Counted from the stretch's first letter, positions 4,219 to 18,974 are shown. The stretch is 40,146 bases of DNA from an uncultured Peptoniphilaceae bacterium (GCA_964522555.1 CAZFWK010000001.1:10114-50259), one strand, 5' to 3'. Made by a program: numbers and translations. Notes: a model not told the origin generated them from the sequence alone.

Positions 4219-4235
4219 TCCAATCCTCCTAAATT

Positions 4236-4433
4236 TTACAGTACGGTTACATCGGCTAATTTCATCAAATTAACCAAAGCTGTATGTTCTTTTTCTTCAT
4301 CCACGCAGATGGTGAGCAAAGTGTCCTTTAGTTCGAAACAACGTGCCTCTACATTCGTTCTGCGCAATACGCTGAGTACTCTCATGCAAGAGTCCATTCC
4401 TAGGGATAGTTCTGCTCTGATCGCTTTTTCCAT
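4236..4433 (-). CDS. small ACT-domain protein, IlvM/IlvN-like acetolactate synthase regulatory subunit (tentative)
   Basis: The listed ORF is 4236..4499. The internal ATG at 4433 is preceded by GGAGGAAG at proper spacing, and the longer form would run into the T-box terminator. The 65-aa product [35 protein letters not shown]...[13 protein letters not shown] resembles the short IlvM-type ACT fold. It is the first gene of the ilv operon. Confidence 0.5.
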
Positions 4434-4478
4434 TTTTTCTTCCTCCATAAATAATGATTTTTTTGAATGAATGGAAAT

Positions 4479-4745
4479 AAAAAAAATCTTCATCTCCAAT
4501 CCATTCCGGATTAGGGACGAAAGATTCTCCGCGGTACCACCCTAATTATGGCAATTGCCATCACTCAGGCCTATCAGCCTTAGTCCTGATAACGGGGACA
4601 TCCGTTTTCTTCTACCCTTTCGTTCGAAGAAACAGCCACAGAGTGATAGATTTTCCTTTGGAACTGTCGACTTTCACCTACAATCGACTCTCTGCGAGTT
4701 CACCGGTAAGGAGCATCCTCTCCGTGCAAGCCTTTCAAATACTTT
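4479..4745 (-). promoter_or_regulatory. T-box riboswitch leader of the ilv operon; candidate specifier AUC (Ile)
   Basis: The minus-strand RNA contains AGAGAG and GGTGAAAG Stem I elements and the T-box sequence AATTAGGGTGGTACCGCG (plus 4531..4547). These are followed by a terminator hairpin and a U8 run (plus A-run 4479..4486). The specifier loop reads ...AAAUCU-AUC-A just before the lower Stem I helix (CACGGAG / CUCUGUG). Confidence 0.85.
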
Positions 4746-4756
4746 TGTATGTGACC

Positions 4757-4785
4757 ATCTTAAAGCATAAATGAAACTGTGTCAA
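4757..4785 (-). promoter_or_regulatory. sigma-70-type promoter for the ilv leader
   Basis: Minus strand: TTGACA (4785..4780), a 17-nt spacer, then TAAGAT (4762..4757), immediately upstream of the T-box leader. Confidence 0.5.
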
Positions 4786-4844
4786 GCCTTTTCGATATTT
4801 TTTTCGTACAATAGCCGATTACACCAAAGTGATGCATTTCGTAC

Positions 4845-4896
4845 AAAAACCGATCCCCTTGCGCCATACGCATTTCGTCATCCACGCAAGGGGATC
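4845..4896 (-). terminator. rho-independent terminator after the lipoprotein gene
   Basis: 12-bp arms GATCCCCTTGCG / CGCAAGGGGATC (4852..4863 and 4885..4896), followed on the minus strand by GGTTTTTGT. Confidence 0.6.
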
Positions 4897-4904
4897 CTGT
4901 TCTT

Positions 4905-6326
4905 CTATCCGAACGACCCGTCCAAACTAAAATCGGGATTCTCGATCAGGTCGACCCAGTCGCCCGTCATCATGTCCATTTGGTACACGGTTCCGTCCGG
5001 TGCGATCGTATAGTAGAATTCTTGCGTAAAATTAAACTCGCCCGAGGTACCTAGGATGACATCCCGGCAAGTTACCCCTTCAATTGTGGATATTTCTTCG
5101 ATAACGACTGCGGTCATTCCGATCTCCATCATCTCTTTTGCCTTCGGTACGATCAAGGTGAGGTATTCGATCAGATCCTTCTCGCTAAAGAGGGAGGTAT
5201 CAAATTCACCCAGGATCGTATGGTCGGTTGGTTCATAGTTTTCCCATAATATATCGAATACAAACGGCTGCCCTTCTTCCGGTTCTCTGCCAAATAACAA
5301 GTCTCCCGACGACGGGTACAGGTGCAAATAGCCCGAAGAGTCCGTATCGATGAAATAGGATCCGGTTAAATTCTCCTGCAGTCCGGCTGCGTATTCCGAG
5401 TCCTCTTCGCCAAATAGATTCCATACGAGGTCGAGATTCAGATTCAGTATGCCGGGCTTTTCGCTGTCTTTCGCTTGTTCTGCAAAGGAGATCTCATATG
5501 TACCCTCATAGACTTCCGCTGCATCCGAATCCTTCCAACCGGTCATCCACTTTGCGTTGCCGTCTTCCATAAGGGTGAGGTAACCGTAGAAATTTTCGTT
5601 GCTGTCTTCTTCGGAACCATATATCGGGGTTATCCAACTCCATTGCGTCAAGAAATCATAGCGGATCGGGAAACGAAGGTCATAGCGAAGCCCCTTTTTA
5701 TCGGTAGCGTAAATGGTGTTTTCGCCGATTCCATCTTTTTCTTTTTCATACGTTAAGATGTCGACTTCATCGATCCAGTTTAACTTGCGAAACGTATAGA
5801 GTAGATCCGTGTCTTCCCCGATAAACGGATCGGCGATAAACTGTTCGAGACTTCCATCGTCCATTAAGAGTATGACAGTCGGGCAAAGGACCTCTCCCCA
5901 GCCGATGTTTCCGAATTCTTCGATCTGTCCGATGCAAGCATCCACAACGGTTCCTGAATGGGTTTGCACCGGGAACGGTCCTTCTTTCATCCAGGATTTG
6001 TCATACGCGCCGAAATCCTGGTTGTAAATCCCATATTTTACGTTCCAACGGTCCAGATGATACGTCAAAAGCGCCTCGCCATTTTTTATCTCGATGCTTA
6101 CTAGCCCATCCGCATCGGTGCGAACCGGATTCGGTTGCAGCCCTGTTTCTGCCGCTTCCGCTTTCGAAGCGTCCTGCGCGGGCGGTGCTTCGATCGGTTT
6201 CTGAGAAGTCAGCGTGTTTGCCGTCCCCTCCGTCGATTCATCGCCAAGTTTCGCCTCTTCATTACACGATACGAGAAAACCCGTAAGCAAGACGAGCACG
6301 GCGAGTAAAGCAGCAATTTTCCTCAT
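4905..6326 (-). CDS. hypothetical lipoprotein
   Basis: 473-aa ORF. The N-terminus MRKIAALLAVLVLLTGFLVSC has a signal peptide plus lipobox (LVSC). I recognise no catalytic motifs. Confidence 0.7.
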   Translation of the reverse strand: MRKIAALLAVLVLLTGFLVSCNEEAKLGDESTEGTANTLTSQKPIEAPPAQDASKAEAAETGLQPNPVRTDADGLVSIEIKNGEALLTYHLDRWNVKYGIYNQDFGAYDKSWMKEGPFPVQTHSGTVVDACIGQIEEFGNIGWGEVLCPTVILLMDDGSLEQFIADPFIGEDTDLLYTFRKLNWIDEVDILTYEKEKDGIGENTIYATDKKGLRYDLRFPIRYDFLTQWSWITPIYGSEEDSNENFYGYLTLMEDGNAKWMTGWKDSDAAEVYEGTYEISFAEQAKDSEKPGILNLNLDLVWNLFGEEDSEYAAGLQENLTGSYFIDTDSSGYLHLYPSSGDLLFGREPEEGQPFVFDILWENYEPTDHTILGEFDTSLFSEKDLIEYLTLIVPKAKEMMEIGMTAVVIEEISTIEGVTCRDVILGTSGEFNFTQEFYYTIAPDGTVYQMDMMTGDWVDLIENPDFSLDGSFG

Positions 6327-6494
6327 GATCCTTTCCTTTCTGACGTTTCAAAAGCAGTAGTCATCTCGATTGCTTGACAGACCGACAGATAACGATATCC
6401 TATCGAAGCAATGTGTAAACGGTCGATTTCTCAGACTAATTCCCTTTCTTGTATTATACCCATTTAACCAAAAAGAAGCGAGTCGAAGCGGTAC

Positions 6495-6529
6495 AAAAAG
6501 AGCTCTAACAAGTAGAAAGAGCTCTTTTT
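6495..6529. terminator. bidirectional-looking terminator hairpin
   Basis: AAAAAGAGCTCT (6495..6506) and AGAGCTCTTTTT (6518..6529) are perfectly complementary with an 11-nt loop. It lies downstream of the minus-strand gene ending at 6560. Confidence 0.6.
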
Positions 6530-6559
6530 ATCCGCTTCTATTTATCTTTTCGAGTATTC

Positions 6560-7087
6560 TCACTTCGTCCGCTGTTCGAGAATCGACTCCGCAATCGGAA
6601 CCGCGATCTCCTCCATCGCATGGGCTACGCCATACGGCGGGTCGACCTCGTAACGGAAGTCGTCGAGGTAGAAGATAATACTCCCATAATCCGAAAAAAG
6701 GACTTCATAACCTGCAATCTCCCCATTGGGAGCGAATTTGGCATATTCATCCTCAAACTTCGATTGATCCCGGCACCCTATATCCAAGCTATTCCAATGG
6801 CGAGAATTCTGTGGCGACGGATAGGCCGTGCTGATCTGATATCCGTTCACGTCATACCATGTCCTGGTAACCAAAGAAACCGTATAAGTGGTCTTCGAAT
6901 CCGGAAGCACTTCTTTTTTAGGCAAGAGTATCTTCGAGTTCCCCGCCATCTTCTTTGTCAACTCTTCGTAGCTGTCGACATCGTATTCCGGCTGAGGAAA
7001 TTTGGGTAGCGAAACCCAAATCAACACGAAAATCAGAAGCGGGATCACGACGATCGCTACTTTTGTGATCGGATGGTATTTTTTCAT
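6560..7087 (-). CDS. hypothetical membrane-anchored protein
   Basis: The listed ORF is 6560..7108. I prefer the ATG at 7087 (MKKYHPITKVAIVVIPLLIFVLIWV) because AGGAAGGG sits at RBS distance. It has a single N-terminal TM helix. Confidence 0.6.
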   Translation of the reverse strand: MKKYHPITKVAIVVIPLLIFVLIWVSLPKFPQPEYDVDSYEELTKKMAGNSKILLPKKEVLPDSKTTYTVSLVTRTWYDVNGYQISTAYPSPQNSRHWNSLDIGCRDQSKFEDEYAKFAPNGEIAGYEVLFSDYGSIIFYLDDFRYEVDPPYGVAHAMEEIAVPIAESILEQRTK

Positions 7088-7145
7088 ATCACCCTTCCTT
7101 TCTCGCAACGCAGACTCACCGATGCTGTTTCGAGGAGCATGTGTG

Positions 7146-7459
7146 CTACCCTTTACGAAAGCGCCTCGACCTCTTCATCCTTGCTCGCGCATAGTAAAGT
7201 ATGCAAACTGAACAGTTCCCGGCAAAAACGGCCGGTAAAGCGCTTTCAATCATCCATCGTTGCGACAGTATCCCCATTGCATCCAATTTCTTGGTCAACC
7301 GCGCAGAGCCGGAAAAATACCGTATTACGTATATCAGAAGCATGATCAAGACAGGAATCACCAAACCCGGAGCCAGTGATCCGACATCACCAACTTCTCC
7401 TGTGCTAGCAGCGTTGCAACTCCTGCTGAGAGTATAAGAAACATTAATACGACTTCCAT
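7146..7459 (-). pseudogene. possible frameshifted small two-TM membrane protein
   Basis: An ATG at 7459 with a GGAGG RBS opens MEVVLMFLILSAGVATLLAQEKLVMSDHWLRVW and stops at 7358. A different frame (listed ORF 7146..7364) continues with the hydrophobic VIPVLIMLLIYVIRYF... The two frames overlap around 7358..7364. Confidence 0.25.
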
Positions 7460-7563
7460 TTCTTACCTCCGTCTAATTCGGTGTTCTCTTTCATCCATCC
7501 TAAGTCCCTTACTCATTCGATACAGGCCGGTTTTGCAATTCTCTGATTATGCAATCATCGAGC

Positions 7564-7929
7564 CTATCTATCATTGTGATCCGCACTGTTTCTGTAGTTC
7601 CTTATTAGGAACATTCCAAAAATCGAAACGAGAATGATCGGCATTGGCAGAACTTGAAGTTGATGCCAAATACGGTATATGATAAATCCAAGATTCACTA
7701 TCATCAGTATCGGGTAGTTTGTTCTCTCAGTCGTGTCTAGTACTTTTCTCTTTTCATCCAACAAGCAGAAAAGGAGGATTCCAAATATCGCAAAAGCGAT
7801 CACCTGAAAAAAGATCAATCCGTACAGAAATCGAAACTTCTCTGCTACTTCTCTTTGGAAATACCGAAGGATTGGATCATATGAGATTGCAATTAGTTGG
7901 AGACTGAAAAGCAAAAGGTATTTTCTCAT
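7564..7929 (-). CDS. hypothetical multi-pass membrane protein
   Basis: 121-aa ORF with about 3 hydrophobic segments, in AT-rich sequence. No recognisable motif. Confidence 0.5.
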   Translation of the reverse strand: MRKYLLLFSLQLIAISYDPILRYFQREVAEKFRFLYGLIFFQVIAFAIFGILLFCLLDEKRKVLDTTERTNYPILMIVNLGFIIYRIWHQLQVLPMPIILVSIFGMFLIRNYRNSADHNDR

Positions 7930-8073
7930 TGAAACCTCACTTTCGTTACGTGAAAAATTAGGGAATAACGATCTTTTTGCGAAGTCTATCTACTGATCAA
8001 TAGCTGCGTTTCTCAGGGTAAACGACCAACTTGATCCACCTCTTGATAACGATATGGCTGTCGATGCAACTAT

Positions 8074-8766
8074 TTAGCATGGACTTGCATGCGTGGATAC
8101 TGGTCTCCAACTCGCTAATGGATATCTTGTCCAGCTTGTTGTTTTATTGCCAATTGTGTATGTTGTAGAAGCTTGCTGTCCACCTCCGGTATCCGCAGAT
8201 CCTATCTGTGCTAAAGTTACCTTTTGTGAAGTTACATAAACACCATTGCCGGAGTTAGTATAACCACCTGACGTTCTGAGCATCTTACAATATTTTTTAC
8301 CTCCTATAGTTACATAGCTATAATACACTGTACTATAGGCTTTAACCGTAATTGAAGTGTCCCATAGATATTCATATTGACTCCCACCAGTCGATCTAGC
8401 TACTTGTGAACTGATACTATTTCTTGAGAAAAGTCTGACGAAGATTATTTGATTCTTTAAATCGTCATTCTTTTTAGGGTCGGTATTAATAATACTCAGT
8501 ATGTCTTGAGAAAAGACTTCTTTACCATTTGATACACCCTCACTAACTTCATTTCCTACAAAACTATAGATTCCATCGCCATGAATTTTCATATTTGCCT
8601 TCGCGATAAAATCTGGATTTATCATCCGATTCTCTAAGAACATTTCTCTGTGTCTCAAATCATTGTTTTCAACTTTTTGATCCGATGCGTGTACGTTTGA
8701 CTGCATCAAAGCAACAATCCCAATCAGTAACAAAACTTGTTTAAAACAGAATACCCATTTTTTCAT
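8074..8766 (-). CDS. hypothetical secreted protein
   Basis: 230-aa ORF. MKKWVFCFKQVLLLIGIVALMQSNVHA-SD is a classical signal peptide. The C-terminal half is Ser/Thr/Gly/Tyr-rich and beta-like. An RBS AAGGGAG precedes the ATG. Confidence 0.6.
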   Translation of the reverse strand: MKKWVFCFKQVLLLIGIVALMQSNVHASDQKVENNDLRHREMFLENRMINPDFIAKANMKIHGDGIYSFVGNEVSEGVSNGKEVFSQDILSIINTDPKKNDDLKNQIIFVRLFSRNSISSQVARSTGGSQYEYLWDTSITVKAYSTVYYSYVTIGGKKYCKMLRTSGGYTNSGNGVYVTSQKVTLAQIGSADTGGGQQASTTYTIGNKTTSWTRYPLASWRPVSTHASPC

Positions 8767-8991
8767 AGCTGTACTCCCTTTCTTGGTTCAGCTCCATTGT
8801 TCTACGTTGTCTGACCTGCATTAGGTGAATAATAATCAACCTCCTTGTTTTGTAATTCCAATGACGTACAAGATTCTTTGGGATTTGTTTTCAAACTGCT
8901 GGTAAGCTCATTCTCGTTCACAATAGTGTACGCTCTTCCTTTTCGGCATAACGAAGAGGGAGTCGTATTCAATCAGGTCTAAAAAAGGTTG

Positions 8992-9168
8992 TCAGGTCAG
9001 ATTTAGGATGGTTTCCATAAGCTTGGTGAATGCTTTATCTTTTCCATCTGTAGTAATTAAGTCTTTCAGAAGTTCCGAATCTAGGGTAGTATTAAGTTGA
9101 GCCATAGCTTGCCCCCAGTTAGTTTTGTCTGGTAAACTTGTTATACCAAGAGCGAGCTTCTGGTTCAT
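8992..9168 (-). mobile_element. remnant of an IS256-family (mutator-type) transposase N-terminus
   Basis: A 58-codon ORF, below the ORF-track cutoff: MNQKLALGITSLPDKTNWGQAMAQLNTTLDSELLKDLITTDGKDKAFTKLMETILNLT*. The segment LNTTLDSELLKDL...KDKAFTKLMETILN resembles the characteristic N-terminal helix region of IS256-type transposases. The rest of the gene is absent. Confidence 0.4.
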
Positions 9169-9271
9169 TCTTTTTACACCATATATGGCCTTTTTCTTCG
9201 GTTACCGTTCTTGGTATGATAGCATACCTCCTTTTTAGTTATTTCAAAATCGGGAAACATAACTTTAATTT

Positions 9272-9700
9272 TTAATATTTCACCGATTTTGTGTATTTTG
9301 TAATTGTTTCGCCACTACATGTGATTACAGTACGTAATCGATAATTTACTCTAATCGATAGCGAATGTGAGGTGTTGATTGCCGCAGATCCATAACCGGT
9401 TTTGGAAAAAGTGTTAACATTTATCCATCCGCTAGAGGTATATCTTTGTAGGGTCGATACTAAGGTCAAATATCGACCACTATAGACAGCACCTTCAGCA
9501 TAAATAAGAGCTTTATCATTGCTTATATCCAAGTATCCGGAAACATTTTGGATATAAGTTGATGCTGGCAATACACCTGTGTAATCAAACCACTCCACCG
9601 GTTCACTGGATGCATATATGAGACGTGGTTTTGATTGAATAACCAAAGTCGCTAGCATGACTAAGAATAGGCCTTTTAGAATCTCTTTTTTTATTAACAT
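9272..9700 (-). CDS. hypothetical small secreted protein
   Basis: 142-aa ORF with a signal peptide (…LVMLATLVIQSKPRLIYA-SS). It sits directly downstream of the sigma/anti-sigma pair with a 33-nt gap and its own RBS. Confidence 0.6.
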   Translation of the reverse strand: MLIKKEILKGLFLVMLATLVIQSKPRLIYASSEPVEWFDYTGVLPASTYIQNVSGYLDISNDKALIYAEGAVYSGRYLTLVSTLQRYTSSGWINVNTFSKTGYGSAAINTSHSLSIRVNYRLRTVITCSGETITKYTKSVKY

Positions 9701-9733
9701 AGATATATTATTCTCCTTCCTGACATTCTGATC

Positions 9734-10450
9734 CTAACGTTCATACTTCACTTCAATTTTCTCAATAATCGCTCTAGTCTGTTCCCTTTCAAGATTAGAG
9801 TTTACAGTAATCACGATACCATTCACTTCCCAAATAACAGTAATGACATTGTTCTTTTTGTATTCATGCACCTCACTCCCCTTTAAATCATAAACATCAT
9901 ACTCGGCATCTTCAGAGTCTACTGCCCCTACATATCCTTCCGCGAAATAACCTCTTATTCTGATATAACTCGATTTGTTCTCGTACGACAATATCGATAA
10001 GTTGCCGTGATGGCTAGATTCTGTGATTGTAAATCCTTCAGGGATTTTGGATAATTCGATCTCAAATGACTTGGCTGTATCATAGGTGTTAGATGATTCA
10101 TCCAGAACCCAAGTAAATGAAGTATAACTATCAAGAACCTCAATAATAGCTGTATATATTCTATTGCCGATTGCAAAAGCTCTATCCGGACCTATCGCAA
10201 TCGAAAAGACTAGGAGAACAGCAGCAACGAAAGGAAGTGATCGTCTCAAAAAAGGCACAGTCTTATGCTTAGATTTCCCGTTTTTTTCATAATTATAGTC
10301 CTTCTCCTTGCTTCGTAACTCCAGAAATAAGCTATCCATCTTACTATTGAATTTCGGTGAGAAGACTTCATCATAATTTAGAGTTTTTGAATTGGCTTCT
10401 CTTCTTAGTAGAAGTTCCTTCGCATCTTCTTCCTTCCATTTCGATTTCAT
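9734..10450 (-). CDS. putative anti-sigma factor / DUF4367-like single-pass membrane protein
   Basis: 238 aa. It overlaps the sigma gene stop by 4 nt (ATGA). It has a charged N-terminal cytoplasmic part, one TM helix (LPFVAAVLLVFSIAIG), and an extracellular C-terminal domain ending ...VITVIWEVNGIVITVNSNLEREQTRAIIEKIE, which is typical of DUF4367 partners of ECF-like sigmas. Confidence 0.6.
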   Translation of the reverse strand: MKSKWKEEDAKELLLRREANSKTLNYDEVFSPKFNSKMDSLFLELRSKEKDYNYEKNGKSKHKTVPFLRRSLPFVAAVLLVFSIAIGPDRAFAIGNRIYTAIIEVLDSYTSFTWVLDESSNTYDTAKSFEIELSKIPEGFTITESSHHGNLSILSYENKSSYIRIRGYFAEGYVGAVDSEDAEYDVYDLKGSEVHEYKKNNVITVIWEVNGIVITVNSNLEREQTRAIIEKIEVKYER

Positions 10451-10959
10451 CGCTCATCCTCCTCGTGAACAGCCTTTCTAAGTTTTTCCAGTGCCCTTTC
10501 CATCCGTTTTCGTACCGTCGGTTCCGCTACTCCCATCATTTGTGCAATCTCTCGGTATGAATATCCGTCCAAAATTTTAAGGCGCACTAATTCAGCAGAT
10601 TTCTCATCAATTAGAGATAAATAGTACTCCGCACTTTCTGCACCATGCCATTCCGAGTAGTCATCCACGGCTTGTTCCTTTCGGAAAATATATAGCTCTT
10701 GTTCTTTGCTATTCTTTCTCCGATAATTTATGGCGATGCGCTGCGTGATTCGCCCGATATAGGCGCGGAGTGCAAATTCATTGTCGAGACGAATGTTAGA
10801 GTATTGTTCCCACAAAACAATCACTGTATCGTGAAGGATGTCCTGCACATTGCCTTCATCTCTCACAACGCGAAAGGCAATCGCACTCATATAAGTATGA
10901 TATTTATGATAAAGAAACTCGATCATGTCGGTTCTGGATTTCTTATCGAAGTCGGTCAC
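10447..10959 (-). CDS. ECF-type (sigma-70 family, group 4) RNA polymerase sigma factor
   Basis: 170 aa with a GTG start (an alternative ATG lies 11 codons in). Region 2-like VQDILHDTVIVLWEQY and a region 4 HTH (LDGYSYREIAQMMGVAEPTVRKRMERALEKLRK) are present. Confidence 0.85.
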   Translation of the reverse strand: MTDFDKKSRTDMIEFLYHKYHTYMSAIAFRVVRDEGNVQDILHDTVIVLWEQYSNIRLDNEFALRAYIGRITQRIAINYRRKNSKEQELYIFRKEQAVDDYSEWHGAESAEYYLSLIDEKSAELVRLKILDGYSYREIAQMMGVAEPTVRKRMERALEKLRKAVHEEDER

Positions 10960-11072
10960 AAGTCTATTGCTCCTTTCCGATCGAAATACTCCTCTTATCT
11001 ATACTTCGTTTCTGCCCACCGATTTGTGACAGTTTCGGACGAAAAAACGAATATTTTTTAAGTCTATTTGTT

Positions 11073-11293: not shown

Positions 11294-11938
11294 CTACTGT
11301 TTTACCCTCCCACGCTTCAGAGAAATCACGAAAATCAGGATCATAAAGACTCCCCACAAAATGCTGGTGAATGCGTGGTGGATGGATACTTGATCATAAA
11401 ATTCGTAGAGCCCATCCCTGTATGGATTCCACGGTAGCGTTTGAAAGAGGCGACCGAAACCGTGAACGAGCAAAAAAAGAATGGATGCAAACAATGTCCA
11501 GGTAATTTCTTTGGTCACATACATCGCAAAAAACCCCAGCCATCCGTACAGCCAGCAAAATAAAAAATAGCGAGCTACAAAGCCGATTCCTGCCGGACTA
11601 AAGGGTGCAAAGAAGACAAACGCCACTGCAAAACCGGTGATAGCGAAAAGAAGGATTAAGCCAATCGTTCTTGCAATCCACCAAATGGGTTTCGGGTGCC
11701 AATGGAAGTGAAGCTCTCCTCCTTGGGATGAGACCGCCTCTCGCAAAAAGAGTACAGGCCATACGCCTGCGAAGACCGGCATCACGTTACTCACGTACGA
11801 TAAGAGGGGCATAACTGGATACTCGGACCGGATGATAAAAAGCTGCAGCCATAACCAAAAAGGCGCAAAAAGGATCCCATAGAGGGGGATCCACTTCCAT
11901 TTGCCAAAAGTCTCAAAACAGAGTTTAATCTCACGCAT
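11294..11938 (-). CDS. hypothetical polytopic membrane protein (possible ABC-2-type permease partner)
   Basis: 214 aa with about 6 hydrophobic, Trp/Phe-rich segments. Its start overlaps the ABC ATPase stop by 8 nt. Confidence 0.55.
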   Translation of the reverse strand: MREIKLCFETFGKWKWIPLYGILFAPFWLWLQLFIIRSEYPVMPLLSYVSNVMPVFAGVWPVLFLREAVSSQGGELHFHWHPKPIWWIARTIGLILLFAITGFAVAFVFFAPFSPAGIGFVARYFLFCWLYGWLGFFAMYVTKEITWTLFASILFLLVHGFGRLFQTLPWNPYRDGLYEFYDQVSIHHAFTSILWGVFMILIFVISLKRGRVKQ

Positions 11939-12741
11939 TTTTGATCAGCGCCAGGTAAATGTCTTCAAGATTCGGTTCTACAAGAGATACCCCTTCAGGA
12001 AGCGGGTTGCCATAGATTCTGCAGATGAGTCCATTTTCTTCCGTTCGTACCTGCAAAACTTGTGCTTTTTCTTCCCATCTTGGAAGTGCTTCCGGTGCAA
12101 TTAGAATCTCTCCTATACAAGAATTCATTTGGCTTCGGAGTGCTTCTTTCGTTTCGTGAACCAATACCTTTCCCTGATGGAGGACCGCGATGGTTTTTCC
12201 AATATGGGCTACATCTTCGACGATATGGGTGGACAGGATGATACACCGATCCTGTCCCAATTCACCGATAAGGTTTCGAAGTTGCACCCGTTCTTTCGGG
12301 TCGAGTCCGACTGTCGGTTCATCCAGAAGGAGTGTTTTTGTATCTCCAACGAGCGCCTGGGCAATTCCCAGGCGACGAAGCATTCCACCGGAAAGATGCC
12401 TGACTCTTTTTCTTCTTTCATCGGTCAGATTGACCTGCGTAAGAACTGTCTCAATTTCTTCCTGGCGCGCTCCTTTAAGTAAGGTCACGTATTCGACAGC
12501 TTCTTCCACTGTCAATTCTTCCATCATCCGAAAGTGTTGCGGAAGATAGCCGGTAGCCTTTTGGCCACCCGCAATTTTCAGTTTTCCGGTCGCGGGGATG
12601 AGTCCCAAAACACAACGAAACAGGGTCGTCTTTCCCGCTCCGTTGGGTCCGAGCAGCCCATGTACTCCTTTTCCAAATTCCAGTGTGACCTGATCCAGTA
12701 CCTTTTTTCGATTTCGTCTCAGTGTTCAGTTTTATGTTCAT
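11931..12741 (-). CDS. ABC transporter ATP-binding protein (DrrA/ABC-2-type), reading frame broken near the N-terminus
   Basis: The frame that is open from 12725 to 11931 encodes KKVLDQVTLEFGKGVHGLLGPNGAGKTT (Walker A), LSGGMLRRLGIAQAL (signature) and LLLDEPTVGLD (Walker B). That frame has no ATG/GTG/TTG before the Walker A motif. A typical ATPase start, ATG-MNIKLN, is at 12741 but in a different frame. The listed ORF 11931..12608 starts after Walker A. Confidence 0.75.
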
Positions 12742-13635
12742 TTCTTCCCACTGAAACCGGGGTGACTCGTAGGGGATTTCTTCCCGGTCGTAATAAAATT
12801 CGTTATCTTTCTTCACCGGGGTGAGAACGAGATCTCCTTGACCCACCGTATATGAAATGGGACGCTGCATGGTTGTAATTCCCGTAGAGACGAGGACAAC
12901 ACCGAGTGCAGATAGCAATATGGCTTTTTTCTTCTGACTCTTAACAAATCCGCATATGGGAATCAGGCTGACCGCCAACCAAAAGAGTCGTTTGGACCAC
13001 TGGCCCATCGATAAATCAAATCCTTGCAGTGCATTAAACATCTTGTGCGCGCCAGGCAATCCAAAGTCGGGTGCTAAGGGCAGATCAACCGACAAGAGCT
13101 GGCCAACCGCAACAATCCAAGGTGCTCCTAAAGAGCCCAGAAAGAAACCGATCACGGCAGCCAGGAGATAGCCTTGTACGAGCGGCACTTTTCTGCCAAG
13201 AGCCCATCCAATATTTCCCCCGATGCACATGGGCAAGAAGTAGTATAAGAGTAGGGCGATAAGTGATTGACCTAAAATATGGACCGGATGATCGCTCCAA
13301 AAGTAGGCAAGTGTGGTCATCCCCATCATACAGAGCACGCAAAAAAGGAAAGCCAGATCTAAGGCAAAGGTCTGTGTCCAGATACGAGCTTCTTCTTTTT
13401 TGCAAAGACGAATCCATTCCTCCGCACCCGAAACCTTTTGGGAAGCTCCGAACCGATACCCCGAGAATACCGCCCAAAAGATTGCCAGCTGGTGTAAAAA
13501 TGTATACGCGTGAAAGACTGTGATACTCTCCAACCAAAGACCCAGTCCGGTGCTCAAAATGATGAGAATCACAAAAACGCGATTGATGATATCATTTCGA
13601 ATTCGCTTAAATTCCAGCTGTAATAGGGTGAACAT
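12475..13635 (-). CDS. polytopic membrane protein (ABC-2 permease-like); the ORF as it stands reads through into the ATPase gene out of frame
   Basis: An AAGGAGG RBS precedes the ATG at 13635. MFTLLQLEFKRIRNDIINRVFVILIIL... has multiple TM segments up to about 12830. After ...RFQWEE the same frame contains the ATPase-like start MNIKLN (12741) and then a low-complexity Arg/Gly-rich tail. That tail is the ATPase gene read in the wrong frame. Confidence 0.6.
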   Translation of the reverse strand: MFTLLQLEFKRIRNDIINRVFVILIILSTGLGLWLESITVFHAYTFLHQLAIFWAVFSGYRFGASQKVSGAEEWIRLCKKEEARIWTQTFALDLAFLFCVLCMMGMTTLAYFWSDHPVHILGQSLIALLLYYFLPMCIGGNIGWALGRKVPLVQGYLLAAVIGFFLGSLGAPWIVAVGQLLSVDLPLAPDFGLPGAHKMFNALQGFDLSMGQWSKRLFWLAVSLIPICGFVKSQKKKAILLSALGVVLVSTGITTMQRPISYTVGQGDLVLTPVKKDNEFYYDREEIPYESPRFQWEEMNIKLNTETKSKKGTGSGHTGIWKRSTWAARTQRSGKDDPVSLCFGTHPRDRKTENCGWPKGYRLSSATLSDDGRIDSGRSCRIRDLT

Positions 13636-13704: not shown

Positions 13705-14346
13705 TTAATCCCATAAAGTTCCTCGTCCACTGCATCCCTTCGTTTCAATATTCACCGGATCTAACTCCAAAAGATGAGACCCATAGACAAATGCAGGAAT
13801 TTTATATCTTGTGGAACGATTGTCACCCGGAACAACACGTAAGGCGTCCACTTCTATATCCAATGTAGTCAATTTTCGACGATGAATTAAAATTCCAAAC
13901 AACGCTCTAACAGAACTCGCGTCGTTATTTGATAAAAAAGCGAGGAATATCACAGTGAGCCGTCTCTCTCCGCACATTTGCATAGCTAGTGTTACCGTTG
14001 ACGTGCAAACTAATTGAATATTCTCTTGATCAAACGAACTGCACTCGCGTACGATCGCCATTGAACCCATAATAATCAGAACCACAGTCACTGTCTTGAG
14101 ATAATAACCCATCTTTGTCTTACAGTGATTATTGTCTAATGGGCTTACAAATGAATACAGCCCTGTAATAAGAACTAACATTTCTTTTACCAGATCCATT
14201 TTACCTGCTATTAACAGTACAGGTGCAATAAGTGCGAGCCTAAGTAAAGTTGCCTTGTATCCATAAACAGCAATTCGAAATTCTCTTTCATCAATCACAT
14301 GACCTATTTGAAAAGGTATGTACCTGTTAATAATCGGATTTTTCAT
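13705..14346 (-). CDS. AgrB-like membrane protein (putative autoinducer-peptide processing enzyme), divergent
   Basis: The listed ORF is 13705..14379; I prefer the ATG at 14346 (MKNPIINRY...). A gapless by-eye alignment with S. aureus AgrB (from memory) puts EFRIAVYGYK on QFLQVRLGMQ. It also puts the His of ...PLDNNHCKT exactly on AgrB His77 (same 45-residue spacing from the conserved Gly). About 4-5 TM segments. Confidence 0.45.
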   Translation of the reverse strand: MKNPIINRYIPFQIGHVIDEREFRIAVYGYKATLLRLALIAPVLLIAGKMDLVKEMLVLITGLYSFVSPLDNNHCKTKMGYYLKTVTVVLIIMGSMAIVRECSSFDQENIQLVCTSTVTLAMQMCGERRLTVIFLAFLSNNDASSVRALFGILIHRRKLTTLDIEVDALRVVPGDNRSTRYKIPAFVYGSHLLELDPVNIETKGCSGRGTLWD

Positions 14347-14473
14347 TTTCCAACATCTGTCGAATATGGAGTCTCTCATCGTCTTTAAACCAGATCAAAA
14401 AGCTACCGCTATGAACTTCTAACGAGGCAAGTAAGATCCCTAAACTTAGGAATGCTCTTGCAATAGTTTTCAT
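14327..14473 (-). CDS. 48-aa AgrD-like autoinducing-peptide precursor candidate (not in the ORF track)
   Basis: AAGGAGG (14487..14481), a 7-nt spacer, then the ATG at 14473. Product: MKTIARAFLSLGILLASLEVHSGSFLIWFKDDERLHIRQMLENEKSDY. It has an amphipathic N-terminal leader, a hydrophobic core SFLIWF and an acidic/charged C-terminal tail. It overlaps the AgrB-like gene start by 20 nt. Confidence 0.45.
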   Translation of the reverse strand: MKTIARAFLSLGILLASLEVHSGSFLIWFKDDERLHIRQMLENEKSDY

Positions 14474-14492
14474 CTACACACCTCCTTGTATG

Positions 14493-14544
14493 ATCATATG
14501 GTACCATGAGATAAGCAACAAGAGACAATTCATGTCTAAACGGT
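14493..14544 (-). promoter_or_regulatory. sigma-70-type promoter for the peptide/AgrB-like/ABC unit, with one LytTR-consensus-like 9-mer upstream
   Basis: Minus strand: TTGTTG (14521..14516), a 17-nt spacer, then TATGAT (14498..14493). ACCGTTTAG (14544..14536) fits the published LytTR site pattern [TA][AC][CA]GTTN[AG][TG]. I found no convincing second repeat. Confidence 0.4.
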
Positions 14545-14589
14545 GGTTATTTTTGATTTATCTATATTGAGTAAATTTCATCGTTATAT

Positions 14590-15813
14590 TTATGGTATTT
14601 TAACGGTAGTACGATAGGTGTTGCCCCCAATCTGAATCGATAGATTCCCGTCATGTTTTTCAACGATTCGCTTCACGCTTTTCAGCCCGATCCCCCTGTT
14701 GGGATCTTTGCTACTATTTATTAACTTATCTTCGACCCACCTATTTTCGATTTGGATTGTGACCATCTGTGGAGTTTGTTTCATCTTGATTACCAGTATT
14801 CTCTCTTCAATGGACACTTGAAGTAACGCGTTCATCGCATTGTCCAAAAGATTTCCGATCAAAACAGCTGTATCCGTTGCATCCATTGGGATTGTTTTCG
14901 CGACACGCATATCGATCTGCAAATTTTCCGGGTAGAACATCGATGGATCAATTTTTTTATTCATCAATAGATTGACTCGTTCATTTTCACTGTAGTTATG
15001 AAACTTATGATTATCTACACCTTCTAATAGTTCTTGGATTTTTTCTGTTCGTTCTGATTCTTGGATTGCTAAGAGCCCCAATAACATATTGCTTATATCA
15101 TGTTTATACCTTCGAATTTCGCTTTCATAATGCGCGAATTGTTTATAGTATTGCTCCTGCGCTTCCAATCTTAAAGCCAACTCAAAGGTGCGCTTTTCGC
15201 TCGTATATTGTCTTGTCGAAAACTCAAAAGCAATAAACACCAAGACCGAAAGCAGCAAAAGCATCATCTCTTGAAAGAACCATCGCAAAGTTGGTAGTTC
15301 AGGTGCGTTTACATCGGGAGAAAATAAAAACACATAGCTGGTTATGAGTGCCCATACTAATCCCATAACGAACTGCAATCGATTCGGGATGATTTCTTCT
15401 GACCTTTTATGTTTGACTATGATGATTTGGATAATAACAATACGTAACAACGAGGAGGTGAAGCCGTGAAAATAATAATTCGATAGCATGTCCTGCCCAA
15501 GTAAGTTAAAGATCTGAAAGAGAACAAGCTCAAATGCCATCGAAAGACCGATTAAAGCAATGATATACTGAACTCGCTTTTTCCAATGTCCTTCAAATAG
15601 AAAACTAATCCCCAATAACAAAAGTGTCATTGCAATACTGTTTGCTATAGGATTTCGCCATACATTTATATAAATGAGTCCAAAATATAGACATACCGTG
15701 ATAAATGCAACTCGAATGAAAGGAAATCGAGTCTCTCCTAAATACATGGTAAAGTACCGAAAGATAATGTAAAACTCTGCTAAGTTGTTCACGCTGTGAA
15801 ATAGAAGTTCCAA
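14590..15813 (-). CDS. AgrC/ComD-like (HPK10, GHKL) sensor histidine kinase
   Basis: 407 aa with a TTG start after GGAGGAG. The N-terminal half has about 6 TM helices. H-box RRYKHDISNML, N-box IGNLLDNAMNAL and G-box NRGIGLKSVKRIVEKHDG are present. Confidence 0.85.
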   Translation of the reverse strand: MELLFHSVNNLAEFYIIFRYFTMYLGETRFPFIRVAFITVCLYFGLIYINVWRNPIANSIAMTLLLLGISFLFEGHWKKRVQYIIALIGLSMAFELVLFQIFNLLGQDMLSNYYFHGFTSSLLRIVIIQIIIVKHKRSEEIIPNRLQFVMGLVWALITSYVFLFSPDVNAPELPTLRWFFQEMMLLLLSVLVFIAFEFSTRQYTSEKRTFELALRLEAQEQYYKQFAHYESEIRRYKHDISNMLLGLLAIQESERTEKIQELLEGVDNHKFHNYSENERVNLLMNKKIDPSMFYPENLQIDMRVAKTIPMDATDTAVLIGNLLDNAMNALLQVSIEERILVIKMKQTPQMVTIQIENRWVEDKLINSSKDPNRGIGLKSVKRIVEKHDGNLSIQIGGNTYRTTVKIP

Positions 15814-15826
15814 TAAATCTCCTCCT

Positions 15827-16546
15827 CTAGTAATATGCAGTGAATGCCTTTCTTAGATGCTTGACCCCTTCTTCGCTAGCTTCTAGGTCACGACCGTCCC
15901 TGAGTCGTACAATAATCTTGAAAGTGGGGTCTATTTGGGGGACAATTCTAGATACATGAGACACTTGAACATATGTGCTTCGATTAATTTTGATAAATAG
16001 ATTCGCATCTCCGATTCTATTGACGATACTTTTAAGGCTTTCTGTAGATTCGAATAAATCTCCATCCAGCGTATGAAGTACACTTTTTCTCGATTCTCTT
16101 TCAATCGATACGATTTCGTCAATTAAGAGAACTATTTTTTGATGGTTTTCGATTATTTCTAAAGACCGTCTTGGACCTGATTTCTTTTTGAGTACCTCGC
16201 GTAAAACCGATTCGAGCTCCTCTCTATCAATGGGCTTAAGAAGATAGTCCAGAGGGTGCGCTTTGTAGCCTTCCAATGCAAATTCTCGATGCGAGGTAAC
16301 AAAAACAATTTCGCTTTGATGGTTCGTCTCTCGGATTCCCTTCGCAATAGTAATGCCATCCTCTCCGGGCATTTCGATATCCAGAAGATACAGGTCATAT
16401 TCGCTAACCGTTCTTTTTCGATCTAGCACATTAGCATTACTAAAATCATGAATCATTAGCGATTCAATTGGGAGGATTTCTTTTATAAGACATCGTATTT
16501 GGGTGCGGAAGACTTCTTCGTCATCCAGAATTGCAATGCGTAGCAT
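15827..16546 (-). CDS. LytTR-family response regulator (AgrA-like)
   Basis: The listed ORF extends to 16669, but the ATG at 16546 follows AGGGGGAA and gives the canonical receiver start MLRIAILDDEE...LLDIEMPGEDG...LLKP. The C-terminal LytTR domain reads IVLLIDEIVSIERESRKSVLHT...FIKINRSTYVQVSHV. Confidence 0.9.
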   Translation of the reverse strand: MLRIAILDDEEVFRTQIRCLIKEILPIESLMIHDFSNANVLDRKRTVSEYDLYLLDIEMPGEDGITIAKGIRETNHQSEIVFVTSHREFALEGYKAHPLDYLLKPIDREELESVLREVLKKKSGPRRSLEIIENHQKIVLLIDEIVSIERESRKSVLHTLDGDLFESTESLKSIVNRIGDANLFIKINRSTYVQVSHVSRIVPQIDPTFKIIVRLRDGRDLEASEEGVKHLRKAFTAYY

Positions 16547-16734: not shown

Positions 16735-16977
16735 CTATCCTCCGCCCAGTGAGCGAAGGATTAGGATATGATCCCCCTCCTCAAGCGTATCGCCTGGCGA
16801 TAGGGGTTGTGATTGTCGTAGTACTGTATACAAGTTTGCCTTGTCGTCCCATAGGGTGCCCTTTTCGAAGAGTTGGGACAGCAATTCTTGGACGGTCGCA
16901 TGGTCGGCGAGCGTTTCTTCCGATTGTCGGTTTTTCGCACTTGCCATAATACCCAGGCATTTTACGGAGACTTTCAT
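16735..16977 (-). CDS. MoaD/ThiS-family ubiquitin-like sulfur-carrier protein
   Basis: 80 aa ending ...ILILRSLGGG (C-terminal Gly-Gly). Its start overlaps the AOR stop (ATGA). Confidence 0.7.
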   Translation of the reverse strand: MKVSVKCLGIMASAKNRQSEETLADHATVQELLSQLFEKGTLWDDKANLYTVLRQSQPLSPGDTLEEGDHILILRSLGGG

Positions 16978-18827
16978 TTTTTGTATAAGTCGGCTTTGAC
17001 CTCTTCCAGTCCTCCGATCTCGTCCAGGAATTTTTCCGTGGGGACGCCGGTGTCCGGGTCGTATCCCATGGTTTCGAAGAAATTCCTTGCCAAGAGCTTT
17101 GTGTCGATGTCGACTCCTTCAAGCGGGCCACTTTCTAGCGGAGGGTGTCCGACTGCGCGTTCTGACATCGTCATATCTTTCGGATAAATCCCCTCTCTTA
17201 GATTGAATGCGTGGCGCAGCGTGTAGATCCGTTTGCCTGTGTTGTTGTATTCTTCCGTTGATCGTACTCTTCCGGTAATCGCTTGATTCAGAAGCTCGTC
17301 GATCCCGGGTGGCGCGCAATATGCCGCAAAGAAGCACAGCCCGCTGCAGTTTAGCATTTCGATATGCGCCACGCTTGCGACGTCCGCATCGCCTGTATTT
17401 TCGTAAATGTATTTGGACGGGTCGCTTGATAGCATCTGCGTAAATCCGGCGCCTCCCTTTACATGCCTTCCCGGGCTCGGGTCGTATTGATAGGTTCTGG
17501 CGACACCCGGTGCAAAGCGCGCGTCGTGCATCGGAAGCTCGATTCCCGAGGCGGTTTGCAGATACTCTTCCCCTTTTCCAAAGTGTTTGGCGGCGTAGGC
17601 GGATCCGTTCGCCATAATTGCGCCGACGCCTTCACATGCAGCCATCTTTTCCGTAATGGCGACGATGGCTTCCGCGTTCCCCCATGTAAGGTCTATCCCG
17701 TCGAGCTCCTCTTTCGATAACATGCCGTTTTCGTAGCACTCCATCGCCCAAGCGACGGTCATCCCGGCTGAGATCGTGTCAAACCCGGCGCGATTTCAGA
17801 TTTCGTTGCACTTTAGCATCGCGTGTTCGTTGCCGTTTAGGATGGTGGAGCCGAATGCGGCCGCGGTCTCGTATTCGGGGCGTTCCGTCTCTTTCATCGG
17901 CCAGGGGCCGTCATTCACCTCGTATGTTGCACCGCAGCCTAAAGGACAATTGGCGCAGTTGTATTTTTTCTTCTTATAGCGGTCGAGGTTCATCGCCGAA
18001 AAACGCTCCGCGCTTTCCTCCCCGTAATCGGAAATGCCTACGCCTTGCCAGTTTTTCACAGGGGAATCTCCGCTTAAGGCGGATGCCGCCGTCATCGCAC
18101 CGGTTCCGTACTCGCCAAATGCGAGGGCCATGTCTCCCGTCTTTACGACCTCGACAATGCCTTTGTTCAGTTCCGTAATGCGGTCTTCGTCGTCGACTTC
18201 GATTTTCCCGGTTCCGTATACGACAACCGCTTTCAGCTTTTTCGAACCCATCACAGCACCCAAACCGCCCCTCGCCGGAGCTCGATGCCCGTCGTTGATC
18301 GGGCAGGAGATCAGCGACTCCTGTTCACCCGGCTTTCCGATCGCCATCACGCGCGCTTTCGGCTGTTCGACTTCGTCTTTCAAGATCGGGATGATCTCTT
18401 TGCAGTCGATCCCTGCAAGATGTGAGGCTTCTCGAATTTCCGCTTCTCCTTCGTGGATCCACAGATACACCGGTTTTTCGGAGATCCCCGAAATAAACAC
18501 GCCGTCGAAGCCCGCCTTTTTCAGCTCGGGGCCGATATAGCCTCCGGAGTTGGCGTCGTTCCACCCTCCGGTAACGGGCGATTTACAAACGACCGCGTAT
18601 CTTCCGCTGAAGAAACTCCGCGTTCCCGTGGTCGGTCCCGTCACGATTCCGAAGATATTGTCCGGTCCCAAGGGGTCTGCCCCGGCTGGCATTCTGTCGT
18701 ACAATACTTTCGCTCCGATCCCGTAACCGCCGACATACTTTCTCGTCCACTCCTCCGGTAGCGCCTCTTTCGTGATCGCTCCTGTCGTCAGGTCTACAAA
18801 CAATAACTGTCCCGCATACCCTTTCAT
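16974..18827 (-). CDS. aldehyde:ferredoxin oxidoreductase (tungstopterin AOR family), interrupted by a single in-frame TGA at 17796..17798
   Basis: The two listed ORFs (17796..18935 and 16974..17762) are in the same frame. The joined reading is ...HAMLKCNEI-TGA-NRAGFDTISAGMTVAWAMECYENG.... The N-terminus MKGYAGQLLFVDLTTG (ATG 18827 after AAAGGAG), the 4Fe-4S motif CANCPLGC, and the GFDTIS and MLNCSGLC motifs are AOR hallmarks. Confidence 0.85.
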
Positions 18828-18852
18828 TTTGCTTCTCCTTTCATGATTGGGA

Positions 18853-18974
18853 CGCAAAAAAAGCCATGCGCGTCCCTTGGGGCACATGACTCCTTTCCGA
18901 ACACGGGAGGCGAGCGGATTGCTCCACTCACCCATAGTCCGGCATAACCTTTCAGGCTAAGCCGAATCGGAGTA
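18853..18974 (-). promoter_or_regulatory. Moco/Tuco-type riboswitch candidate with intrinsic terminator
   Basis: The minus-strand RNA is ACUCCGAUUCGGCUUAGCCUGAAAGGUUAUGCCGG...GCUCGCCUCCCGUGUUCGGAAAGGAGU. P1 is ACUCC/GGAGU, and the GCCUCCC and GGAAAGGAG elements are as I recall them for the Moco motif. A hairpin CAUGUGCCCCAAGGGACGCGCAUGGC plus U7 follows (18853..18888). It sits upstream of the AOR and MoaD-like genes. Confidence 0.6.

Follow-up and report, generated by a model that had tools for sequence, protein, structure and literature searches.

A divergent agr-type cassette in an uncultured Peptoniphilaceae bacterium, probably a decaying remnant

Gene content and layout of the cassette

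The stretch of DNA considered here, referred to as the window, comprises 40,146 nt from an uncultured Peptoniphilaceae bacterium (GCA_964522555.1 CAZFWK010000001.1:10114-50259), and its positions 13705 to 16546 carry a cassette related to the agr quorum-sensing systems. In minus-strand order, a LytTR response regulator gene is followed by a GHKL/HPK10-type kinase gene, a 116-nt spacer, a 48-codon open reading frame (ORF), an overlapping membrane-protein ORF and a set encoding a membrane protein, an ATP-binding cassette (ABC) ATPase and a second membrane protein (Table 1). All the ORFs of a preliminary description of this DNA are present on that strand where it had placed them. The agr-type identity that it proposed is borne out by a regulator combining REC and LytTR domains, an HPK10-type kinase and a conserved precursor-like ORF overlapping an AgrB-related gene. 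Its view of the locus as an intact system fails, as the AgrB-like gene is without its catalytic cysteine and its own 3' end, the transporter genes are damaged and most population samples have a frameshift in the kinase gene. The cassette is thus probably a horizontally acquired, divergent agr-type system that has been partly pseudogenised, i.e., a decaying remnant and not a new working architecture.

Table 1. Features of the window and of the intact comparator locus L016. Identities and E values in the L016 rows are those of tblastn matches of the L016 proteins in the window. RBS, ribosome-binding site.
Feature	Position	Strand	Remarks
Window: LytTR-family response regulator, 239 aa from ATG 16546	15827..16546	-	Pfam Response_reg and LytTR
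Window: membrane histidine kinase, AgrC/HPK10 type, 407 aa, TTG start	14590..15813	-	Pfam HATPase_c_5
Window: spacer, 116 nt	14474..14589	-	Weak sigma-70-like pair, RBS, candidate LytTR half-site
Window: AgrD-like precursor ORF, 48 codons, MKTIARAFLSLGILLASLEVHSGSFLIWFKDDERLHIRQMLENEKSDY	14327..14473	-	Homologues at the same position in relatives
Window: chimeric 213/224-aa ORF, starts 14346 or 14379	13705..14346 or 14379	-	AgrB-derived N-part and secreted-protein tail
Window: AgrB-derived part of the chimeric ORF	13987..14346	-	His codon 14127..14125; Tyr codon TAT 14106..14104
Window: 3' part of the chimeric ORF, in-frame remnant of small secreted protein	13705..13926	-	Homology to L016 6579..6968
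Window: truncated permease-like membrane ORF, 386 aa	12475..13635	-	Weak collinear similarity to L016 663-aa protein
Window: ABC ATPase coding sequence	11931..12731	-	Walker A GPNGAGKT; Pfam ABC_tran, AAA_21
Window: 214-aa membrane protein, putative second permease subunit	11294..11938	-	Overlaps ATPase stop; hydrophobic segments
Window: 80-aa ORF ending ...ILILRSLGGG	16735..16977	-	Directly downstream of aldehyde ferredoxin oxidoreductase gene
Window: ECF sigma factor	10447..10959		AT-rich island
Window: DUF4367 partner of ECF sigma factor	9734..10450		AT-rich island
Window: predicted secreted/lipoprotein/membrane ORFs without Pfam family	4905..6326, 6560..7108, 8074..8766, 9272..9700		AT-rich island
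L016: regulator	3760..4485		Window regulator gene, 41%, 2.6e-54
L016: kinase	4482..5714		Window kinase gene, 36%, 2e-75
L016: precursor, 53 aa	5838..5999		Window small ORF, 45%, 3.8e-5
L016: AgrB-like protein, 173 aa, about equal to P0122	5986..6507		Residues 6-108 at window 14295..13987, 6e-14
L016: secreted protein, 129 aa (sec129)	6579..6968		Residues 59-129 at window 13926..13708, 1.4e-5
L016: membrane protein, 663 aa	6989..8980		Residues 57-183 at window 13503..13123, 0.003
L016: ABC ATPase	8967..9791		From residue 6 at window 12731..11952, 42%, 8e-60
L016: membrane protein, 211 aa	9788..10423	

As had been described, the cassette is AT-richer than its surroundings, with a guanine-cytosine (GC) content of 38% (13705..16546) against 51-54% in the flanks. 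A low GC content relative to the flanks is seen for the cassette in three different genomic contexts and genomes, and this recurrence points to mobility of the cassette and to its horizontal acquisition.

Regarding the sensor pair, both Pfam assignments of the regulator are clear (Response_reg, 64.6 bits, E 1e-17; LytTR, 39.5 bits, E 6.5e-10). On the NCBIfam side, the AgrA equivalog NF046049 scores 32 bits for a cut-off of 400 and the best match is LytR, with 83.7 bits for a cut-off of 375, so that the protein has an AgrA-like architecture but is not an AgrA orthologue. The kinase proves to be of the AgrC-like GHKL type by its HATPase_c_5 match (Pfam, 66 bits, E 3e-18) and by six hydrophobic segments within residues 29-201; H238-D239 and N242 of its H-box are invariant in an alignment with its relatives (A3), and its reading frame is intact in the window allele. 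It is 36-39% identical to the kinases of the related loci L011, L012 and L016 (P0003, P0004 and the L016 kinase), in all of which the gene order is the same. Two further kinase relatives, P0006 and P0007, have glycosyltransferase and YfhO genes as neighbours, with no AgrB among them, and are uninformative.

L016 lies in a metagenome-assembled genome labelled uncultured Peptoniphilaceae bacterium and is the one locus found by scanning GTDB with the family alignment (A1). Scanning GTDB with the kinase alone returned nothing, and the same holds for scans of JGI metagenomes with the AgrB-like alignment and with the kinase alignment. The proteins of L016 map collinearly onto the window (Table 1), and the order regulator, kinase, small ORF is found in L011, L012/L013 and L016. 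The linkage to an ABC module is common to the window and L016; it is partly present in L015, with a secreted protein and a similar membrane protein, and absent from L011 and L019. The physical coupling of a peptide unit to a transporter, put forward in the preliminary description, therefore recurs in one other lineage, L016, which is collinear throughout.

In both L016 (6579..6968) and L015 (1660..2037), the gene after that of the AgrB-like protein encodes a small secreted protein, 125-129 aa long and provided with a signal peptide. This protein ends in a G-x-x-G-x-[LI]-W motif, has no significant Pfam family in either locus, and may be the regulated output of such cassettes.

In the spacer, the sequences TTGTTG (14521..14516) and TATGAT (14498..14493), separated by 17 nt, are placed as previously described. 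The case for a promoter here is weak, since they match the consensus at only 8 of 12 positions and fall under the threshold of the promoter scan. The strong ribosome-binding site (RBS) is there (AAGGAGG, 14487..14481, 7 nt ahead of the ATG at 14473 of the small ORF), and between 14473 and 11938 the terminator/promoter scan gives no terminator-like site on the minus strand, as had been stated. A candidate LytTR half-site, ACCGTTTAG, is located at 14544..14536 and belongs to an element, CCGTTT[AG][AG][AT]C..GAATT, that stands upstream of the precursor in the window (14544..14526), in L011 and in L015b, and of which the first nine bases fit the LytTR consensus. The 9-mer is not enriched in the window, where two matches are found against 0.98 expected by chance, and the element is therefore only a candidate binding site.

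Two of the relatives are arranged differently. In the region after the kinase gene of L012 (2384..2504) and L016 (5715..5837), a clear intrinsic terminator that looks identical in the two loci (GTCGCGTTTCGAACGCGAC followed by a run of six T) is followed by an extended -10 element (TGTTATACT or TGCTATAGT) ahead of the precursor gene, and the extended -10 also occurs in L011 and L015b. It is mainly the extended -10 TGTTATACT that was recovered by k-mer motif discovery in six upstream regions. The succession of terminator and extended -10 supports the separation of regulator and kinase (A-C) from precursor and AgrB (D-B) as two units, which had been proposed for the window, and makes this organisation a family trait. 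Unlike L012 and L016, the window spacer has neither a terminator after the kinase gene nor an extended -10, both of which it has lost.

The precursor, the AgrB-like ORF and the transporter module

The 48-codon ORF, which overlaps the ATG (14346) of the next ORF by 20 nt as described, is real and conserved: five other loci (L011, L012/L013, L015 and L016) carry a homologue at the same position, where a lack of conservation would have spoken against the peptide gene of the preliminary description. L015 has two copies (258..401 and 1224..1367) for a single, Pfam-positive AgrB. The precursor overlaps the AgrB-like gene in the window, L011, L015 and L016; L012/L013 have one too, and that of L019 is canonical. 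When the six family peptides are aligned (A4), G12, E19, W28, D31, E33 and L41 are invariant. None of the six matches the AgrD or cyclic-lactone models of Pfam and NCBIfam at E<=10. Inspection of the same alignment shows an AgrD-like shape: a hydrophobic/amphipathic leader precedes a short core, the core ends in Trp, and the follower is charged and acidic, with six acidic and four basic residues in the window (FKDDERLHIRQMLENEKSDY). Proline, common in clostridial followers, is missing from that of the window and found in those of L012 and L015. There is no double-glycine leader or other GG motif in the 48-aa ORF.

The residue four positions ahead of the Trp (W-4), where canonical AgrD has its Cys, is Ser in the window, L011 and L012; L016 and both copies in L015 have Lys, Ala or Gly there. 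Judging from these sequences, the product of the L015 and L016 precursors, devoid of Ser or Cys at that position, presumably cannot be a standard five-residue (thio)lactone. D31 and E33 of the window peptide lie three and five residues past W28; in the AgrD of L019, which reads ...SACWYVM-GQDELP, the D-E pair lies 3-4 residues past the ring. By analogy of this spacing, the precursor would be cleaved after the Trp.

The membrane ORF that follows had been described as AgrB-like, an assignment which does not stand on direct profile searches and does stand transitively, through relatives. No AgrB-family hit was obtained for the 213/224-aa ORF in Pfam (E<=0.1) or NCBIfam (E<=1), an outcome that the preliminary description had itself named as refuting it, and it is the relatives alone that rescue the assignment. 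An exhaustive phmmer search of 1.84 billion representative proteins found only P0122 (1e-7), P0123 (2e-5) and P0124 (4e-5), and BLASTP links the ORF to the L011 protein P0125 (2e-9), so that its relatives amount to four proteins. Against the gathering threshold of 23 bits of the Pfam AgrB family PF04647, P0123 passes with 36 bits and P0124 with 37.9, P0122 reaching 16.9; P0125 has no Pfam AgrB match at E<=10. A word-indexed homologue search returned the ORF itself only, and the family alignment added nothing new to it. Searches of the PDB sequences with the ORF, with the family profile (a chance hit at E 0.16 only) and with S. aureus AgrB gave nothing useful, there being no solved AgrB structure for a comparison of folds.

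The S. aureus AgrB sequence, which scores as AgrB at 114.6 bits, was also aligned to the family by hhalign. The register is exact, the family motif H-C-x-T-R-x-x-C falling on H77-A-P-S-S-F-W-C84 with the His on H77 and the window Tyr on C84, at an E value of 0.029 and a probability of 1.7%. For S. aureus AgrB, C84 is described as the cysteine of the active site, and H77, R70 and G75 as necessary for activity (PMC10196373). In a MAFFT alignment, the His (H85 in the 224-aa numbering) is invariant in all seven sequences, including S. aureus AgrB and the AgrB of L019. At His+7, the C84 equivalent, six of the six other sequences have Cys and the window has Tyr, its TAT codon (14106..14104) being one transition away from TGT. 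In the window ORF, the R70 column is occupied by Val and the G75 column by Asn, and Arg and Gly are likewise missing from both columns in P0122-P0125; the AgrB of L019, by comparison, shows the Arg of R70 and a GG just ahead of its His.

The alignment to the relatives covers the N-terminal ~130 residues only and the hydrophobic segments stop at residue ~115, so the ORF falls short of a complete polytopic AgrB of ~170-190 aa. The remainder comes from another gene. The tblastn match of the C-terminal part of sec129 (Table 1) lies in the frame of the AgrB-like ORF; local alignment of the ORF tail with the secreted protein scores 72, against 22.9 +/- 4.0 for shuffled sequences, and none of 5000 shuffles reaches that score. 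Both proteins end in ...LDP....GC[ST]G[RK]G[TE]LWD-stop, and the homologous segment takes up the last ~55-70 residues of the ORF and, in the secreted protein, 52-71 residues at the C-terminus. This same-frame homology and the shared LWD-stop identify the ORF as a chimera, with an AgrB part up to about residue 131 and a secreted-protein part from about residue 152 (152-224). It would have arisen by deletion of roughly 300-340 nt, from the 3' end of the AgrB gene through the intergenic DNA into the 5' part of the gene that follows. From these alignments, the 213/224-aa ORF is AgrB-derived but fails a defining catalytic feature. A frameshift was considered as the origin of its non-membrane C-terminal half and rejected: the other two frames offer no hydrophobic continuation, and the homology to the secreted protein explains this half instead.

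Downstream, the ORFs of the described membrane/ABC/membrane set are present, but the ABC ATPase is not intact. The permease-like ORF is preceded, as is the small ORF, by a good RBS, and also weakly resembles the L015 membrane protein. With 386 aa against 663 in L016, it aligns to the N-terminal membrane part of the L016 protein alone and lacks ~330 residues of the C-terminal domain; three-frame translation shows that its last ~85 codons overrun the start of the ATPase gene, out of frame. In the ATPase frame itself, none of the start codons ATG, GTG and TTG precedes the Walker A motif; the ORF upstream is read in a different frame, and the alignment with the L016 ATPase begins at an in-frame stop. 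Its best NCBIfam matches are of the GldA, DrrA and lantibiotic-protection ABC types. Two routes to this startless gene are possible, either a 1-nt (+1) frameshift after the ATG at 12740 or one ~1-kb deletion reaching from the extracellular domain of the permease to about codon 6 of the ATPase. The sequence MNIKLN encoded from 12740 would on the first route be the start of the ATPase; comparison with L015 suggests that it may be part of the permease extracellular domain instead, in which case the single deletion could account for the shortness of the permease as well as for the missing ATPase start. The 214-aa protein has the position of the 211-aa membrane protein of L016, but no sequence similarity between the two was detected.

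These lesions recur in ten independent Logan assemblies from different samples (L001-L010), all at least 99.85% identical. The identical chimeric ORF is encoded in all ten and the same truncated ATPase in the eight that cover the permease/ATPase junction, and the proteins are also present on an NCBI contig. Further lesions segregate in the population. At 15790, in codon 8 of the kinase gene, a 1-nt deletion (GTGAAC to GTAAC, leading to a stop at codon 11) is found in seven of nine contigs; the codon is intact in the window, L002 and L004, and the window allele is the intact, ancestral form. L004 has a 1-nt deletion at 14598, at the 3' end of the kinase gene, and L001 a 1-nt insertion at 12036 in the ABC ATPase. 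No assembly shows a lesion in the regulator or in the precursor ORF.

Decay of the cassette and alternative readings

In the intact family, the order would be regulator, kinase, terminator, promoter, ~50-aa precursor, AgrB-like endopeptidase, secreted protein, large permease, ABC ATPase and second permease. By analogy with known agr systems, the AgrB-like enzyme would cut the precursor after the conserved Trp and a short peptide would be released, nominally a Ser-Phe-Leu-Ile-Trp lactone in the window lineage. The kinase would sense this peptide, and the regulator would then switch on the peptide operon and, with it, the secreted protein and the ABC exporter. In the present genome the production and output arm is most likely broken. 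The AgrB-like ORF has Tyr where the catalytic Cys should be; a deletion has cost it its own 3' end and joined it in frame to the end of the secreted-protein gene; and a second lesion has left little of the large permease and an ABC ATPase that is startless and out of frame. The codon 8 frameshift in most sampled populations suggests that the kinase is on its way out as well. The regulator, the precursor ORF and the kinase of the window allele have stayed intact. All in all, a decaying and signal-mute remnant, at best a listener, is the most likely state of the locus.

Several points weigh against this reading of the locus. The ancestral layout is taken from one fully intact comparator, L016, and the fused ORF and the shorter permease could be variants of the lineage and not lesions. 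The AgrB link of the window protein is a transitive one, with no direct profile match and a weak hhalign score, and R70 and G75 of S. aureus AgrB are unconserved in the subfamily. The Cys directly after the conserved His might substitute for the catalytic one, and for neither of the two Cys is conservation strict among the five members of the family. In addition, the chimeric ORF has stayed open for 224 codons and the ATPase frame for 264, in AT-rich DNA; either the lesions are recent or some product is still made.

It is tentatively proposed, at a clearly lower level of confidence than decay itself, that the cassette represents an unnamed AgrB/AgrD subfamily, in which part of the precursors are nucleophile-less and the operon is hard-wired to a secreted protein and an unusual ABC exporter, and that this subfamily is here caught being lost. 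Its precursors would follow the consensus G-[IV]-[ILV]-L-A-x-[ILV]-E-V-x(3-4)-x-[FY]-[FIV]-W-[FYH]-x-D-x-E and its enzymes would be without the GGxH/R70 signature. Were this so, half of the known precursors, i.e., those with Lys, Ala or Gly at the ring position, would give linear or otherwise cyclised peptides, and the production genes would be dying first and the sensor next.

That the window harbours a listener, with peptide production dead but with regulator and kinase retained for eavesdropping on the peptide of related strains or species, comparable to the agr "cheater" and orphan-receptor cases, is doubtful. The regulator and the precursor ORF are intact in every assembly, codon 8 of the kinase is intact in three sequences and the upstream LytTR-like element has been kept; yet a kinase frameshift in most population samples speaks against selection for sensing, target genes cannot be identified and the downstream output genes are themselves broken. 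An intact, functional system of A-C and D-B units, in which the 213-aa protein makes a cyclic SFLIW(F) lactone and the ABC module serves export or immunity, is unlikely. It would account for the fact that all ORFs are open and that two of them, the small one and that of the permease, have good RBSs, for the conservation of the small ORF with its Ser at W-4 in the window, L011 and L012, for the Cys adjoining the conserved His and for the collinearity with L016, ABC module included. What counts against it is that the catalytic Cys is replaced by Tyr in the window only, that the C-terminus of the ORF comes from another gene, that the ATPase is startless and out of frame and that the kinase is frameshifted in seven of nine assemblies; the order A-C-D-B, moreover, is found at other loci too.

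Quite unlikely is a LytTR-regulated bacteriocin or toxin cassette outside the agr family, of the ComDE, BlpRH or Pln kind, with the small ORF as toxin or pheromone, the membrane ORF as immunity protein and an ABC exporter. The resemblance of the ATPase to the DrrA and lantibiotic-protection types, the small secreted protein downstream in L015 and L016 and the lack of a direct AgrB profile match for the window membrane ORF fit such a cassette. Set against them are relatives that pass the Pfam AgrB threshold, a His/Cys dyad in register with AgrB and a precursor of tripartite AgrD shape with an acidic follower. The double-glycine type that the preliminary description had named as the competing system gains no support either, as the small ORF has no such leader and the stand-alone ATPase (~265 aa) matches ABC_tran and AAA_21 only in Pfam, with no match to a peptidase domain. 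As for assembly or sequencing artefacts, single-base indels are typical of sequencing errors, but the indel sites lie outside homopolymers and the recurrence of the same chimeric ORF and truncated ATPase across independent assemblies rules out assembly error; an artefactual origin of the lesions is extremely unlikely.

The layout is not the novelty that it was first taken for. In C. difficile R20291, the agr2 locus has the order agrA, agrC, agrD, agrB, the reverse of that of S. aureus (PMC3754575), and L019 has the same arrangement; A-C-D-B with overlapping precursor and AgrB is thus known in C. difficile and recurrent in metagenomes. With agr2 the window shares this order, a LytTR regulator, an HPK10-type kinase, a precursor of ~46-48 aa and an AgrB-type membrane protein. 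No close sequence relationship to agr2 was detected, however, and the window AgrB-like ORF is under the Pfam threshold, chimeric and without the catalytic Cys. Its precursor has Ser and not Cys at the predicted ring position, and its locus is tied to an ABC module. Furthermore, agr2 is reported as probably one transcript, whereas the relatives of the window have a terminator after the kinase gene.

S. aureus agrBDCA shares the four-component logic, the precursor of hydrophobic/amphipathic leader, short core and acidic follower, and the seven-residue spacing of H77 and C84, which is reproduced in the relatives of the window protein. It differs in its reversed gene order, in R70 and G75, which the family does not conserve, in the residue at the C84 position, which is Tyr in the window, and in an AgrA whose equivalog model the window regulator is far from reaching. 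An RNAIII-like divergent transcript was not seen at the present locus, no search having been aimed at one. In Enterococcus faecalis, the fsr system (FsrB/FsrD, with GBAP as product) also makes a Ser-derived lactone and not a thiolactone, and has its regulator gene first, as in the window. Its order A-B-D-C and the nine-residue ring of GBAP are both unlike the window.

L019 (ENA ERZ21563605 contig_12402) has the order regulator, kinase, AgrD, AgrB, with the precursor overlapping AgrB, and its kinase P0009 is related to that of the window (E 8e-19); the D-E past its predicted ring has been likened above to D31/E33. It differs by a canonical AgrD core (CWYVM, with Cys), by an AgrB that passes PF04647 with a GGxH...C motif and by the absence of an ABC module. 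The L019 cassette is bracketed by IS3-type and IS66-type transposase genes (1701..2896 and 6433..7088), an arrangement consistent with cassette mobility.

Many families of autoinducing peptides (AIPs) have already been mined from human microbiomes at large scale (PMC11953309), and Ser-lactone and lactam AIPs are known (PMC8251862). Profile searches alone would miss the present AgrB/AgrD subfamily, which is relevant to surveys of peptide signalling in uncultured Clostridia and Peptoniphilaceae. If the intact relatives are functional, their Ser-containing or nucleophile-less precursors would widen the known product chemistry of AgrB. The window would further represent a natural case of stepwise loss of an agr-type system, in which the catalytic Cys has become Tyr, two deletions have fused genes and a frameshift in the kinase is segregating. 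Staphylococcal variants defective in agr are well known and offer a parallel. For the window itself, the biological consequence is probably small.

Genes flanking the cassette

The AT-rich DNA extends far past the agr-like genes, forming an island (window ~4220..11000, 42% GC overall) between ilvC (3235..4218) and the aldehyde ferredoxin oxidoreductase (AFOR) and leu genes. It includes an ECF sigma factor with its DUF4367 partner and four predicted secreted, lipoprotein or membrane ORFs (Table 1).

The AFOR gene contains one in-frame TGA (17796..17798, minus strand), which splits it into ORFs 17796..18935 and 16974..17762 and lies in the context ...LKCNEI*NRAGFDTISAG..., where the asterisk stands for the TGA. 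The column of the TGA is a conserved Cys in the solved AORs 9g7j (NMLCNEYGIDTIT) and 1aor (NHMCDELGLDTIS), and for the codon itself there are two candidate readings, as selenocysteine or as a nonsense mutation from TGY to TGA. The RNA downstream of it folds no better than shuffled sequence (z -0.02). A split AFOR gene is called in each Logan contig spanning the AFOR region (L001-L006). Directly downstream, the 80-aa ORF (Table 1) has no Pfam match at E<=1e-5; its C-terminal Gly-Gly suggests a sulfur-carrier protein of the MoaD/ThiS type.

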